A DNA stretch of 64,000 bases, from NCBI GenBank assembly GCA_963823385.1, contig CAWGLI010000002.1, positions 310,708-374,707 on the forward strand. Reading direction: 5' to 3'. The notes under the pieces were generated by a model. That model did no database searches and had not been told where the DNA came from. It saw only the letters and a program-made list of their open reading frames with translations. Positions 1 to 22,323 of the stretch are shown here, one piece after another. The position numbers and the translations under genes were made by a program. Each line of letters begins with the position of its first letter. Position 1 is the first letter of the stretch. Source of the stretch: an uncultured Actinomycetes bacterium. Its GTDB lineage: Bacteria; Actinomycetota; Thermoleophilia; Gaiellales; Gaiellaceae.

Positions 1-378
1 TTCCGCACGTGGAACGGGGTCGAGCCATGGCGGATCTTCCCCACTGTCGACCTGCACGCGATCGCCGGTGATCAGGTCTTCCTCGGTCGCGTGACGTACG
101 AGCCGGGGACAACGGTGCAGCGCCACAGCCACGAGCACACCGAACAGGTGATGGTGATCCTCGAGGGCACGCTGCGGATGACAGTCGGTGACGAGACCCG
201 CGAGATGGGGCCGGGTGACGTCTGCGTCGTCAACCGCGGTGTCGAGCACGAGCTCGTCTCCGAGGGAGGCGTCACGTTCATCGAGGCGCTCGCCCCCGTC
301 CCGCTCGATCACATCCCCGATCGGGAGCGCGACCTCGTGCTCGGGGATCTCGGCGGGTCACTCCACGTGGAGCGCTGA
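1..378 (+). CDS. Cupin domain protein (5' end lies before the window)
   Basis: Frame is open from base 1 (FRTWNGVEPWRIFP...). Cupin motifs HSHEHTEQVMVILEG and GDVCVVNRGVEH. Confidence 0.85.
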   Translation, partial: FRTWNGVEPWRIFPTVDLHAIAGDQVFLGRVTYEPGTTVQRHSHEHTEQVMVILEGTLRMTVGDETREMGPGDVCVVNRGVEHELVSEGGVTFIEALAPVPLDHIPDRERDLVLGDLGGSLHVER

Positions 379-1022
379 TGAGCCTCGCCGACGAGCTGCT
401 GGCGCAGCGGGGGCGTTCAGCGGCCCGCTTCGGGCCGGACGGCATGGCCGTGATCGAAGGCGCTATCGAAGATCTCCGCAGTGCCGGCAGGGCCGGGGCG
501 CCGGAGGTCGGTGCCGCGGCCCCGACGTTCACGCTGCCCTCCGCCCGGGGCGGCGAGATCGCGCTCGGCGACCTGCTCGGGCGCCGGGCCGTCGTCCTCG
601 CCTTCTACCGCGGCGGCTGGTGACCGTACTGCAACCTGCAGTTGCAGGCTTACCAGCAGACCCTCGAAGACATCGACGCCCGAGGCGCCACGCTCGTCGC
701 GGTGTCACCCGAGCTGCCCGACGGGTCGCTCACGTTCGCGGAGACGAACGAGCTCGGCTTCGACGTGCTCAGCGACGTCGGCAACGACGTCGCGCGGGCC
801 TTCGGGCTCGTGTGGGCTCTGCCTGTGCCACTCGTCGATCTCTACCGGGAGCGTGGCATCGACCTCGTCGCCGCGAACGGCAACGAGAACTGGGAGTTGC
901 CGATCCCCGGCACGTTCGTCATCGACCGCTCGGGCATCATCCGCCTCGCGAGCGTCGACCCGGACTACCGCAACCGCATTGAGCCATCCGAGCTCCTTGC
1001 GGCGCTCGACGACCTCTCGTGA
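378..1022 (+). CDS. AhpC/TSA peroxiredoxin-like protein, probable selenoprotein (in-frame TGA at 621-623, UPYC motif)
   Basis: ORFs 378..623 and 642..1022 share one frame. The junction reads FYRGGW-TGA-PYCNLQL where the family has FYRGGWCPYCNLQL. C-terminal LPIPGTFVIDRSGIIR is typical of the family. Confidence 0.8.
629..647 (+). promoter_or_regulatory. Candidate bacterial SECIS hairpin
   Basis: CTGCAAC-CTGCA-GTTGCAG forms a perfect 7-bp stem starting 5 nt after the in-frame TGA. It uses a TTG Leu codon, rare in this GC-rich DNA. Confidence 0.5.
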
Positions 1023-1035
1023 CGTCCCTGCGACG

Positions 1036-1716
1036 ATGACCTCGCAACGCCGCGAGCGGATCGTCCTCGTCACCGGCGCGAGCCGTGGCATCGGTGCCGC
1101 AACCGCCGAACGCTTGCGCCGGGACGGCTGGCACGTTAAGACGGCAGAGCGCTCGACCGGAGTCGACCTCGCCGACCCCGACCAGGCACGGGCGGCCGTC
1201 GAAGGCCTCGAGCGCATCGACGCCCTCGTCGCGAACGCAGGGACGATCCTCCGCTCCCCGGCGCTCGAGACGCCGCTCGCCGACTGGCAACGCGTGCTCG
1301 ACCTCAATCTCACGTCGGTGTTCGTGCTGGTGCAGGCCGCCGCCCGGCGCATGGTCGATCAAGAGCACGGTGGGACGATCGTGCTGCTCGCCTCGATGCT
1401 CTCCTTCGGCGGCGGGCTCAACGCCTCCGCCTATGCGGCGTCGAAGGGTGGCGTGGCGCAGCTGACCAAGGCCATCTCCAACGAGGTCGCTGGCCGCGGC
1501 GTGCGCGTGAACGCGGTCGCGCCGGGCTATGTGGAGACCGAGATGACGGCGGACCTCGACGACGGGCGCCGCCGCGAGATCGACGCGCGGATCCCCATGG
1601 GCCGCTTCGCGCAGCCGGAGGAGATTGCCGACGTGGTCGCGTTCCTGCTCTCCGACGACGCGCGGTACGTGACGGGCGCGATCGTCCCAGTCGACGGGGG
1701 CTTCGCGGCCCGCTGA
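1036..1716 (+). CDS. SDR family oxidoreductase
   Basis: TGASRGIG, NAG and YAASK motifs. Confidence 0.9.
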   Translation: MTSQRRERIVLVTGASRGIGAATAERLRRDGWHVKTAERSTGVDLADPDQARAAVEGLERIDALVANAGTILRSPALETPLADWQRVLDLNLTSVFVLVQAAARRMVDQEHGGTIVLLASMLSFGGGLNASAYAASKGGVAQLTKAISNEVAGRGVRVNAVAPGYVETEMTADLDDGRRREIDARIPMGRFAQPEEIADVVAFLLSDDARYVTGAIVPVDGGFAAR

Positions 1717-2786: not shown

Positions 2787-3626
2787 GTGCCGCCACTGGC
2801 CGAGACGAGCCCCTGGCTCACGTGGTCGTTCTCCCCGCTCGTGCTCGCGGGCGCCGTCGTCGCCCTCCTGTTCTTCTTCCAAGGGTTCCGCCGGCTGCGC
2901 GCCCGTGGGAGGCAGGACCTCGCACCGTGGAGCCGCGCCGGCCTCTTCGTGGCAGGCGTCGCGATCACCGTCTTCGCGCTCGTCGGGCCACTCGACACGC
3001 TCGCGGAGGAGTATCTGCAGTCGGCGCACATGCTGCAGCACGTTCTCATCGCCGACGCCGGCGTCGCGCTCACGCTGCTCGCGGTGCGCGGCCCGCTGGC
3101 CGTGTTCTTCCTGCCCCGCGGCCTGCTCGTCCCGCTCGCCCACACACGGTGGCTGCGCGCCGCGCTGGCGTTCCTGCTCAAGCCGTGGGTCAGCTACGCG
3201 TTCTGGGTCGCTGTGCTCGTCGCCTGGCACATCCCCGCCGCGTACGAGGCGGCGCTGACCAACCCGGTCGTCCACACGCTCGAGCACCTGAGCTTCGTCG
3301 CCGCCGGGCTGCTCGTGTGGACGCAGATCGTCGATCCGACGGGGCACCAGCGGCTGACGGTCGGCGAGCGCGCGGGCTACGTCGCACTACTGTTTTGGAC
3401 GGGGCAGATCCTCGCGTACGTGATCGCGTTCGCCACCGAGCCGCTGTACGCCGCGTACGCCGAACAGGCAGAGCGTCTACTCGGCCTGTCACCGATCACC
3501 GACCAGAAGCTGTCCGCCGTGGTGATGATGGTCGAGCAGGCGCTGACGCTGGGGCTGGCCTTCGTGATCCTGTACCGGCAGGCGAGCGCACGTCGGGCCG
3601 CCGAGCCCGCGGAGCAGGCGGGCTGA
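2787..3626 (+). CDS. Cytochrome c oxidase assembly factor, Caa3_CtaG family
   Basis: SAHMLQHVLI, WHIP, HTLEH and DQKLSAVVM motifs; membrane protein. Confidence 0.85.
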   Translation: MPPLAETSPWLTWSFSPLVLAGAVVALLFFFQGFRRLRARGRQDLAPWSRAGLFVAGVAITVFALVGPLDTLAEEYLQSAHMLQHVLIADAGVALTLLAVRGPLAVFFLPRGLLVPLAHTRWLRAALAFLLKPWVSYAFWVAVLVAWHIPAAYEAALTNPVVHTLEHLSFVAAGLLVWTQIVDPTGHQRLTVGERAGYVALLFWTGQILAYVIAFATEPLYAAYAEQAERLLGLSPITDQKLSAVVMMVEQALTLGLAFVILYRQASARRAAEPAEQAG

Positions 3627-4423
3627 TGCCCTCTCCGTGGTCGTTCACCTTCGAGCCGCTTTTCGTCGTGCTCGGGGGAGCGGCGGTGTGGCTCTACGTG
3701 CGCGCGTGGCGGCGAAGCACTCCGCGTCCACCGTCGTGGCGGGCGGCGCTCTTCGGGCTCGGGGTCGGCCTGATCGTCGTCGCGCTCAACTCGCCGCTGG
3801 AGACGATCGCGGTGGAGCACCTGCTGCTCGTCCATCTCCTCCAGAACGTCGTCATCTCCGACTGGGCGCCGCCGCTGATCCTGCTCGGTCTCACGCCGGC
3901 GATGCGCGCGGGTGTCGCCGTCCGTCTCGGCGGCTGGTTCGCGTGGGTCACCCGCCCCGTGGTGGCACTGCCCGTTTGGCTCGTCGGTTGGTACGCGATC
4001 CACCTCGCACCTCTCTACGACGCGCTCCTGCGCGAGCCGCTCCTGCTCAACCTCGAGCATGCGATCCTGATCGCGATCGGGCTGCTGCTCTGGTGGCCCG
4101 TGCTCTGCGACGCACCGCGCTCCCTGCCAACGCTGGGTCGCATCGCGTACGTCTTCGCCGCCTTCGTCGGCTCCGCGTTCCTCGGACTGGCTTTGACGTT
4201 CTCACCACCCGTGTACGGCTACTACGAGGCGCTCCCCGAGCGGTTGTGGGGGATCTCGGTCGAGGCCGACCAGAACCTCGGTGGCATTCTCATGTCGACA
4301 GAGCAGGCGCTCGTCTTCCTCGCAGCAATCGTCTGGCTGCTGCTGCGCCTGTTCCGCGAGGAGGAGGAGGCCGAGCGACAACTCACGGCCGAACAGCGGG
4401 CGGCCGGCCTTCGGCGATGGTGA
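3626..4423 (+). CDS. Second Caa3_CtaG family protein
   Basis: ATG overlaps the upstream TGA. HLLQNVV, WYAIH, LEHA and DQNLGGILM motifs. Confidence 0.85.
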   Translation: MPSPWSFTFEPLFVVLGGAAVWLYVRAWRRSTPRPPSWRAALFGLGVGLIVVALNSPLETIAVEHLLLVHLLQNVVISDWAPPLILLGLTPAMRAGVAVRLGGWFAWVTRPVVALPVWLVGWYAIHLAPLYDALLREPLLLNLEHAILIAIGLLLWWPVLCDAPRSLPTLGRIAYVFAAFVGSAFLGLALTFSPPVYGYYEALPERLWGISVEADQNLGGILMSTEQALVFLAAIVWLLLRLFREEEEAERQLTAEQRAAGLRRW

Positions 4424-20725: not shown

Positions 20726-21451
20726 ATGATCAACGATCATCGATTCTCTGACAGGGTTGCGCTGGTGTCGGGAGCCGCCAGCGGCATCGGCCGGGCGGTA
20801 GCCGAGCGCCTGCTCGCGGAGGGATGTCGGGTCGCCGGGCTCGACCTCCGCGGCGAGGCTCCCGAGGGCGTGCTGCCGGTCGCGGGCGACGTGTCCGTGT
20901 CGGCCGATGTCGACGCCGCCGTTCAGCGCGTGCAGCAGGAACTGGGAGCCGTCGACGTGCTCGTCTGCGCCGCCGGGATCCCCGGTCGTTCGCTTCGCAC
21001 CGTCGACGTGGACGACGCTGAATGGGGACGTGTGATGGCGATCAACGCCGACGGCGTCTTCTTCTGCAACCGCGCCGTGATCCCGGGCATGGTCGAGCGC
21101 GGGTACGGGCGCATCGTCAACGTCGCCTCGATCGCCGGAAAGGAGGGGAATCCGATGGCGGCGGCCTACTCGGCGTCGAAAGCTGCCGTGATCGCATTGA
21201 CCAAGGCGATCGGCAAGGACCTCGCCCGGACGGGAGTCGTCGTCAACTGCATCGCTCCGGCCGTGATCGAGACACCGATCCTCGAGGGTCTCTCCGAGGA
21301 GCACGTGGGCTACATGGTGGAGCGGATCCCGATGGGGCGCATGGGCACCGCCGAAGAGGTCGCCGCGCTCGTCGGCTGGCTCGCGAGTGAGGAGTGCTCG
21401 TTCTCGACGGGAGCGACGTACGACATCTCCGGCGGACGCGCGGTGTTCTGA
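20726..21451 (+). CDS. SDR oxidoreductase (sugar-acid dehydrogenase-like)
   Basis: SGAASGIG, ASIAGKEGNP and YSASK motifs. Confidence 0.88.
   Translation: MINDHRFSDRVALVSGAASGIGRAVAERLLAEGCRVAGLDLRGEAPEGVLPVAGDVSVSADVDAAVQRVQQELGAVDVLVCAAGIPGRSLRTVDVDDAEWGRVMAINADGVFFCNRAVIPGMVERGYGRIVNVASIAGKEGNPMAAAYSASKAAVIALTKAIGKDLARTGVVVNCIAPAVIETPILEGLSEEHVGYMVERIPMGRMGTAEEVAALVGWLASEECSFSTGATYDISGGRAVF
20734..20748 (+). promoter_or_regulatory. Putative operator (CGATCATCGATTCTC)
   Basis: Related sequences at 27281-27300 and 28024-28042, all at gene starts of the same catabolic cluster, which encodes a GntR regulator. Confidence 0.45.
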
Positions 21452-22323
21452 TGCGTCTCGTCCGCTACCGCGCCCCGGACGGGAGAGTCCACGTCGCGGT
21501 CGAAGATGCAGCGCGGTCCGACGCGGGCTCGATTCGCTTCGCGGACGCGCGCGAACACGACCCGCTCGACGTTCTCACTGACGGCTGGACGACGGCCGGT
21601 CACACCGTGGATATCGGCGGCGATCTGTCCACGATCGAGGCGGGGCACGACCTGCTGCGCCCACTCGACCCGCCGGAGATCTGGTGCGCGGGCGTCACGT
21701 ATGAACGCAGCCGCGACGCGCGCGTCGACGAGGCGACTGTTTCGGACGTGTACACGATGGTCTACGACGCAAGCCGCCCGGAGCTGTTCCTCAAGGACGC
21801 CGGCTGCCGGCGCACCGTGGGGCCCGGCGAGCCGATCGGTATCCGCACCGACTCGACCTGGAACGTGCCGGAGCCGGAGATCGGGCTCGTCATCGGCGAG
21901 CACGGAGCGATCCTCGGCTACACGGTCGGCAACGACGTCTCGTCACGCGACATCGAGGGCGCCAACCCTCTCTACCTCCCCCAGGCCAAGGTCTACGCCG
22001 GCGCCTGCGCGATCGGGCCTGCCGTCCTCGTCGCGACCGACACCGCCGAGCCCTTCGAGATCACGATGCGGATCGTGGACGACACCGGGGACGAGGCGTT
22101 CGTGGGAACGACGTCGACGGGGACCATGCGCCGCGGGTTCGAGGAGCTCGTCGAGTGGCTGCTGCGCGACAACCCGGTGCCGCCGGGTAGCGTGCTGCTC
22201 ACGGGGACCGGGCTGGTACCGCCCGACGAGTTCACGCTCCTCCCCGGGCACGTCGTCGAGATCGCCGTCCCCCGGATCGGCACGCTCGCCAACCCGGTCG
22301 TGCTCGCCTCCACGCTGTTGTAG
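21451..22323 (+). CDS. Fumarylacetoacetate hydrolase family protein (2-keto-3-deoxy-pentonate dehydratase, XylX/KdaD-like)
   Basis: EIWCAGVTYERSR, RPELFLK, WNVPEPE, GNDVSSRDIEGANPLYLPQAK. Confidence 0.85.
   Translation: MRLVRYRAPDGRVHVAVEDAARSDAGSIRFADAREHDPLDVLTDGWTTAGHTVDIGGDLSTIEAGHDLLRPLDPPEIWCAGVTYERSRDARVDEATVSDVYTMVYDASRPELFLKDAGCRRTVGPGEPIGIRTDSTWNVPEPEIGLVIGEHGAILGYTVGNDVSSRDIEGANPLYLPQAKVYAGACAIGPAVLVATDTAEPFEITMRIVDDTGDEAFVGTTSTGTMRRGFEELVEWLLRDNPVPPGSVLLTGTGLVPPDEFTLLPGHVVEIAVPRIGTLANPVVLASTLL

Follow-up and report, generated by a model that had tools for sequence, protein, structure and literature searches.

An unannotated gene of a Gaiella-related actinobacterium that probably encodes a Prx-like UxxC selenoprotein

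The window analysed here is a stretch of 64,000 nucleotides (nt) from contig CAWGLI010000002.1, part of the genome of an uncultured, Gaiella-related actinobacterium (order Gaiellales). Positions 378-1022 of its forward strand very probably form one real, unannotated gene, which is predicted to encode a 214-residue peroxiredoxin-like (Prx-like) protein with selenocysteine (Sec, or U) in a UxxC motif. Under translation table 11, the gene is split into an open reading frame at 378-623 (81 amino acids) and another at 642-1022 (126 amino acids, with a TTG start), and the public record of the contig contains only the 126-residue fragment, with no selenoprotein annotation. The original prediction, made from the letters of the window, held that these two frames hide a single gene with a recoded TGA. 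We found the gene to be split in just this way, and Sec recoding is supported by the conservation of the TGA, by the Sec machinery of the genome, and by a hairpin after the TGA that resembles a selenocysteine insertion sequence (SECIS).

The in-frame TGA and the selenocysteine machinery

The frame runs from ATG 378 to a TGA stop at 1020-1022 and contains a single internal TGA, at 621-623. With TGA read as U, the translation is ...AVVLAFYRGGW-U-PYCNLQL... (that is, ...RRAVVLAFYRGGW-U-PYCNLQLQAYQ...), and the tryptic peptide spanning Sec82, as derived from the translation, would be GGW-U-PYCNLQLQAYQQTLEDIDAR. The features of the gene are:

378..1022, forward strand: predicted selenoprotein gene, 214 amino acids, AhpC/TSA (Prx-like) fold, with Sec as residue 82 (from the translation, Pfam, orthologs, dN/dS, and AlphaFold)
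621..623, forward strand: UGA predicted to encode Sec (U82), first position of the UxxC redox motif (Cys in 80 homologs; TGA in 108 distinct Sec-form sequences)
630..632, forward strand: codon for Cys85, second residue of UxxC (from the alignment to the structure 2ywn; invariant in alignment A4)
369..372, forward strand: GGAG motif resembling a Shine-Dalgarno sequence, 5 nt before ATG 378 (from reading the sequence)

When 60 related genomes were searched in all six frames, orthologs turned up in two further species of the genus (G020, 86% amino acid identity, and G033, 77%), each with a single in-frame TGA at this very codon. Starting from three 126-residue "fragments" in the protein database, we found the TGA again in a JGI metagenome contig (98%) and in two SRA assemblies (81% and 80%). 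It is kept across six close assemblies in all if the window's own genome is counted. More broadly, a pattern scan for W-TGA-P-Y-C-N-(L/F)-Q gave at least 120 metagenome contigs, whose GC contents span 0.34-0.73. In each of the 80 that were inspected, FYRGxW precedes the TGA and about 130 coding codons follow it.

The TGA had been placed exactly at the first Cys of a WCPYC motif, and the homologs bear this out: Cys occupies the Sec column in all 80 Cys-form genome homologs (39-60% identity), which read FYRGxWCPYCNLQL, in a search that used WCPYCNLQ as one pattern and so was biased towards Cys and returned Cys forms only (the Sec forms came from the dedicated TGA pattern scan). The C82 column is invariant in alignment A4 as well. 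Cys/Sec pairs at this position were therefore found across homologs. The coding sequence was also said to be intact on both sides of the TGA. Indeed, the ratio of nonsynonymous to synonymous substitution rates (dN/dS) stays within 0.19-0.35 on either side in all six pairs of four close orthologs. Such purifying selection on both halves implies that both are translated in one frame, and these comparisons effectively exclude a sequencing error or a pseudogene.

Sec forms (84) and Cys forms (77) are intermingled in a tree of the family, and its well-supported branches force at least three switches between Cys and Sec. The window gene lies in a tight clade in which all members are Sec forms (G020, G033, and the metagenome locus L123, with 99% support). 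Separately, several genomes have two Cys-form paralogs of the Prx-like family that lie only a few kb apart (loci L042, L051, L068, L089, and L099).

The genome encodes the complete apparatus for inserting Sec. A search for selA, selB, selD, and tRNA-Sec found all four over curated or gathering cut-offs: selD (353 bits), an intact selA (536 bits, with a product 81% identical to SelA of Gaiella occulta), selB (341-355 bits, including the C-terminal SECIS-binding wing domain SelB-wing_3 at residues 510-553), and tRNA-Sec with anticodon UCA (68.6 bits). Genes selA and selB and the tRNA-Sec are clustered at C3:483271-487038. Furthermore, all 17 high-quality genomes of the genus have selA, and the Sec trait appears to be universal in Gaiellales.

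Outside the window, the same genome contains at least four further likely selenoprotein genes, at C2:541707 (reverse strand), C2:430097 (forward), C5:102810 (forward), and C5:100045 (reverse). They comprise a candidate formate dehydrogenase alpha subunit (SCNRT-U-HAPSV, 650 bits), a ResA/TlpA-like candidate (WSSW-U-STC), and two candidates that resemble arsenite methyltransferases (W(A/T)G-U-(V/I)AGAL). The UGA of the formate dehydrogenase gene is followed by a classical SECIS, with a 6-bp stem and a GGUCUG loop that starts 18 nt downstream. With U replaced by C, the NCBIfam scores of these four candidates are just below or below the cut-offs. The scan that found them was filtered on GC3/GC2 with thresholds that were too strict (it missed 378-1022 itself), so the number of candidates is a minimum and does not describe the full selenoproteome. 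This genome clearly makes use of its Sec system.

Candidate SECIS hairpins after the UGA

Three mutually exclusive hairpins can form just after the UGA. We compared them on 108 distinct Sec-form sequences and 76 Cys forms:

629-633/637-641, forward strand: hairpin (i), loop ACC; full in 84 of 108 Sec forms and 28 of 76 Cys forms; no compensatory changes
635-639/644-648, forward strand: hairpin (ii), CCUGC/GCAGG, loop AGUU at 640-643, most likely the SECIS core; full in 84 of 108 Sec forms and 5 of 76 Cys forms; compensatory changes at 638-645 and 636-647
629-635/641-647, forward strand: hairpin (iii), 7 bp, CUGCAAC/GUUGCAG, loop CUGCA; full in 71 of 108 Sec forms and 1 of 76 Cys forms; no compensatory changes

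The functional SECIS is most likely hairpin (ii), at 635-648, and not hairpin (iii), at 629-647, which the original prediction had singled out. The main reason is covariation, as hairpin (ii) is the only one of the three with compensatory base changes. Across the 84 sequences that form it (type A), pair 638-645 is GC in 74, CG in 5, and UA in 5, and pair 636-647 is CG in 83 and UA in 1. These changes amount to 2 pairs and 11 cells, which none of 500 shuffles matched. Also, synonymous sites that are free in the Cys forms are fixed in the Sec forms, and a rare TTG Leu codon is retained in a genome of 70% GC. The mean minimum free energy (MFE) over 632-659 is −7.6 kcal/mol for Sec forms versus −3.3 kcal/mol for Cys forms (p = 4e-23).

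The longer region 615-685 of the window folds at −27.9 kcal/mol (z = −3.2), with none of 200 shuffles as stable. The second stem of this MFE structure (about 662-685, CCUCG...CGAGG) was dropped as a candidate, as it is not conserved in G033 or in locus L122.

Hairpin (ii) starts 11 nt after the UGA, its loop follows after 16 nt, and it folds at −7.9 kcal/mol. We take its starting point to be that of the minimal element of E. coli fdhF. The published model for bacterial SECIS elements (bSECISearch, quoted in PMC13188914) has a UGA-to-loop distance of 16-37 nt and an MFE of at most −7.5 kcal/mol, and hairpin (ii) fits it, with a 5-bp stem, a 4-nt loop that has G in its second position and U in the next, and the 16-nt spacing. 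The loop of hairpin (iii) starts only 12 nt after the UGA. That this is too short had been raised as a caveat, and it is true of hairpin (iii), but with 635-648 as the SECIS the worry is removed. The window hairpin shares its 5-bp upper stem, spacing, and stability with the bacterial consensus and with the fdhF SECIS. It differs from them in being very short (14 nt), in having a tetraloop and no bulged U, in standing at the lower limit of spacing, in lying inside the codons of a conserved peptide motif (N-L-Q-L-Q/R), and in overlapping two alternative hairpins.

Several points weigh against this choice. When each is folded alone, hairpin (iii) has a slight edge in stability over hairpin (ii) (−9.7 versus −7.9 kcal/mol), and a 16-nt spacing is at the lower edge of the published range. 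The alignment of the 84 type-A sequences (A3) was selected beforehand for forming hairpin (ii), so that "100% paired" is true by construction; the fair measures are the unselected tally over 108 sequences and the compensatory counts. Also, many of the sequences are related, and the shuffle counts overstate the significance.

Could the UGA encode Sec while SelB binds hairpin (iii) (loop CUGCA) or hairpin (i) (loop ACC) instead? Hairpin (iii) is certainly present and, taken alone, is more stable than any other single hairpin, the MFE structure of the longer region has 629-641 within a long stem, and both alternatives are 97% paired over the 84 type-A sequences. However, this pairing is maintained through G-U wobble, neither hairpin has any compensatory change, and pairs 632-638, 631-645, and 634-642 break in the same 10-16 sequences in which 635-648 is compensated. 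The 5' arms of both alternatives start 5 nt after the UGA and would be inside the mRNA channel of a ribosome with the UGA in its A site. Their spacing also falls outside the published range of 16-37 nt (PMC13188914). Hence we think it improbable that either of them is the SECIS.

If hairpin (ii) is the SECIS, then with UGA 621-623 at the ribosome, SelB with GTP and Sec-tRNA(Sec) would bind the stem 635-639/644-648 with its AGUU loop. The hairpin would begin just outside the ribosome, and SelB would then deliver selenocysteine in place of termination.

The other 24 Sec forms fall into three groups. In the first, hairpin (ii) has one mismatch or a bulge and the AGUU loop is kept (L131, L134, and L167). 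In the second, a shifted hairpin keeps the 5' arm and has an AG(G/U)U... loop. The third has a second architecture, CUGCAGUU-GGGUC-AACUGCAG, in which an 8-bp stem (CUGCAGUU/AACUGCAG) carries a GGGUC loop starting 20 nt after the UGA. This stem has synonymous-site compensations of its own at 638-654, 641-651, and 642-650 (for example, CAA..UUG to CAG..CUG). Its carriers form a sister clade of Sec forms that read ...WUPYCNLQLGQLQ... (L128, L139, L159, L163, L164, L175, L182, L183, L202, L225, L230, L231, and L238). Thus, one family has two unrelated SECIS architectures, with an AGUU loop at +17 or a GGGUC loop at +21.

A tentative idea, which we consider rather doubtful, is that the SECIS is minimal and "pre-adapted": the 14-nt tetraloop hairpin would occupy synonymous or near-synonymous sites of N-L-Q-L-Q/R, a motif that is also conserved in the Cys forms. 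If so, a few substitutions would suffice to make a Cys gene decodable as a Sec gene, which would explain both the repeated switches (at least three) and the two architectures. In addition, the overlapping alternatives, hairpins (i) and (iii), could tune the efficiency of Sec insertion.

We return to the reading of the TGA itself. Both the gene callers and the public record take it for a stop, and only the 126-residue fragment is called; the genome is a 5-contig assembly with 93.7% completeness. A true stop, with only fragments made (because of a sequencing or assembly error or because the gene is a pseudogene), is nevertheless very hard to reconcile with the same TGA in six independent close assemblies and over 100 distant ones, with purifying selection in both halves, with a covarying hairpin after the TGA in TGA forms only, and with the full Sec machinery. 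Nor does a frame that is open through the TGA name the inserted residue by itself, but insertion of a residue other than Sec (Trp or Cys, for example), through near-cognate decoding or reassignment of the code, has a negligible chance of being correct: TGA is an ordinary stop here (the selenoprotein gene and the neighbouring cupin gene both end in it), the position aligns with Cys and not with Trp, the genome has a dedicated tRNA-Sec(UCA), SelB, and a SECIS-like hairpin, and the Prx-like family is a catalogued selenoprotein family. A further point that counts against a Sec-encoding gene is its rarity, with just 3 of 37 genomes of the genus having it. The selenoprotein gene is an accessory gene in a lineage with universal use of Sec.

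Family, fold, and proposed chemistry

The predicted protein is a member of the known Prx-like 1 family, which has been catalogued for about two decades, and the gene is a new copy of it from Gaiellales. "Prx-like" selenoproteins, in which UxxC replaces the TxxU of Sec-containing Prx (Sec-Prx), were reported from the Sargasso Sea (PMC1088965, 2005; see also PMC1794560, 2006). "Prx-like 1" (pfam00578, UxxC) then accounted for 225 Sec sequences in the Global Ocean Sampling (GOS) data (PMC2398784, 2008, Table 2), and a 2026 review lists it as "predicted with high confidence" (PMC13188914). The GOS supplement has 67 sequences with WUPYC under "#Prx-like 1". One full-length sequence from that set, JCVI_READ_1091141146517, is 39% identical to the window protein over 196 amino acids (E = 3e-48), with Sec in the same column. 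The two have in common the pfam00578 domain, the UxxC motif (U82-P-Y-C85), and the motifs LPIP and DPDY..R.EP. The window protein therefore has what defines Prx-like 1: PF00578, UxxC, and full-length homology with Sec at the same column. It differs from the published members in its source, a soil-type, high-GC actinobacterium of the Gaiellales. The accessible parts of the Prx-like papers contain no individual description of the NLQL(Q/R)AYQ subgroup or of the SECIS with an AGUU loop.

The protein matches the Pfam AhpC-TSA domain (PF00578) with 106 bits (E = 1.7e-30). In contrast, no NCBIfam model reached its cut-off (the best were BCP, with 51 versus 140 bits, and a SelL-related model, with 42 versus 120), so the NCBI naming models do not cover the subfamily as a selenoprotein. 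The AlphaFold model is of high confidence (predicted local distance difference test 94.5, predicted template modeling score 0.91). In it, strand 71-76 precedes U82, which caps helix 83-93 at the N-terminal end; the model also has an extra N-terminal helix (3-36) and an insertion at about 150-170. The fold neighbours are BCP/PrxQ, AhpE, and ResA, all with identities of 25% or less. Neither the sequence nor the model gives evidence of a signal peptide or a membrane anchor, and the protein is predicted to be cytoplasmic.

The original prediction called the protein peroxiredoxin-like. This holds in the sense of a Prx-like UxxC family with an AhpC/TSA domain, but the protein is not a canonical peroxiredoxin. 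Its fold is that of Sec-Prx (TxxU) and of BCP/PrxQ/AhpE (2ywn, 3hjp, and 1xvw; Foldseek E from 1e-14 to 1e-12, template modeling score up to 0.91 on the target). However, its Sec is at the position of the catalytic Thr and not at that of the peroxidatic Cys: FYPAAF-T-QV-C of 2ywn, a Prx from S. tokodaii, aligns with FYRGGW-U-PY-C, which puts Sec82 at the Thr and Cys85 at the peroxidatic Cys. In the same alignment, the Prx Pro (at −7) is replaced by Arg78 and the Prx Arg (R120 of 2ywn) by Pro177. Of the canonical PxxxTxxC motif, only the Cys is kept, with both Pro and Thr replaced, and the catalytic Arg before the (V/T)F(V/L)ID strand is missing (K-R-AVFVID in 2ywn versus I-P-GTFVID). The family alignment shows no variation at P175 or P177. 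With Sec in place of Thr and with no Prx Pro or Arg, a canonical peroxiredoxin identity is ruled out. The protein may belong to cd02970 (PRX_like2), a CxxC group in which the second Cys is the Prx peroxidatic Cys and the other residues of the triad are absent; this agrees with the 2ywn alignment.

The ResA/TlpA oxidoreductases offer a second comparison. They too have a CxxC-type motif at the junction of a strand and a helix, the N-terminal residue being the presumed nucleophile, and the window protein has both sequence and fold matches to ResA in the PDB. In contrast to them, it is predicted to be cytoplasmic, its scaffold is closer to Prx, and its NCBIfam score for ResA is 39 bits against a cut-off of 170.

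We propose that Sec82 would be the nucleophile that attacks a disulfide or a hydroperoxide, and that Cys85, its likely resolving partner, would then resolve the product through a selenenylsulfide (Se-S) bond. The protein would be a thiol:disulfide (or hydroperoxide) oxidoreductase that works with no canonical Pro-Thr-Arg machinery. To our knowledge, no Prx-like 1 member has been characterized biochemically.

Genomic context and significance

The genes on either side of the selenoprotein gene are:

1..378, forward strand: upstream cupin-domain gene, its 5' end cut by the window (Pfam Cupin_2, 9.9e-16; same neighbour in metagenome locus L123)
1036..1716, forward strand: downstream short-chain dehydrogenase/reductase (SDR) gene (Pfam adh_short_C2, 6.3e-53; same neighbour in locus L121)

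ATG 378 overlaps the TGA stop of the cupin gene (376-378), and the junction, CGCTGATGA, is kept in G020 and G033. The cupin gene is predicted to be translationally coupled to the selenoprotein gene. The SDR gene is probably in the same operon.

Two genes downstream of the selenoprotein gene, at 1959-2717 on the reverse strand, is a heliorhodopsin gene (Pfam PF18761, E = 8.5e-100, a full-length match). It adjoins a gene for a Caa3_CtaG cytochrome oxidase assembly protein (2787-3626). After the CtaG gene, the open reading frame listing has a second membrane protein (3630-4423, forward strand) that begins MPSPWSFTFEPLFVVLGG... and resembles the start of the CtaG-like protein, of which it may be a tandem paralog. 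As for RNA genes, a scan of the window with Rfam at gathering thresholds gave no matches to RNA families. ARAGORN's only match in the window, a 93-nt "tRNA-Val (gac)" at 21373-21465 on the forward strand, is a false positive; the stretch lies where an SDR-like gene encodes the C-terminus of its product (...GTAEEVAALVGWLASEECSFSTGATYDISGGRAVF*).

Our results do not change what is known of Sec decoding, or that the family exists. What they add is a corrected annotation, the reassignment of the SECIS to 635-648, and two SECIS architectures in one family. The window genome and its relatives are recorded with a 126-residue fragment of a 214-residue selenoprotein, and over 100 metagenome contigs have the same error. 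The signature W-TGA-CCN-TAY-TGY, followed by an AGUU or a GGGUC hairpin, would recover such mis-annotated copies. Also, the covariation gives a definition of a very small bacterial SECIS that could serve SECIS models. Finally, the gene would add a thiol-redox selenoprotein to the selenoproteome of the Gaiellales, an abundant and little-studied order of soil actinobacteria.

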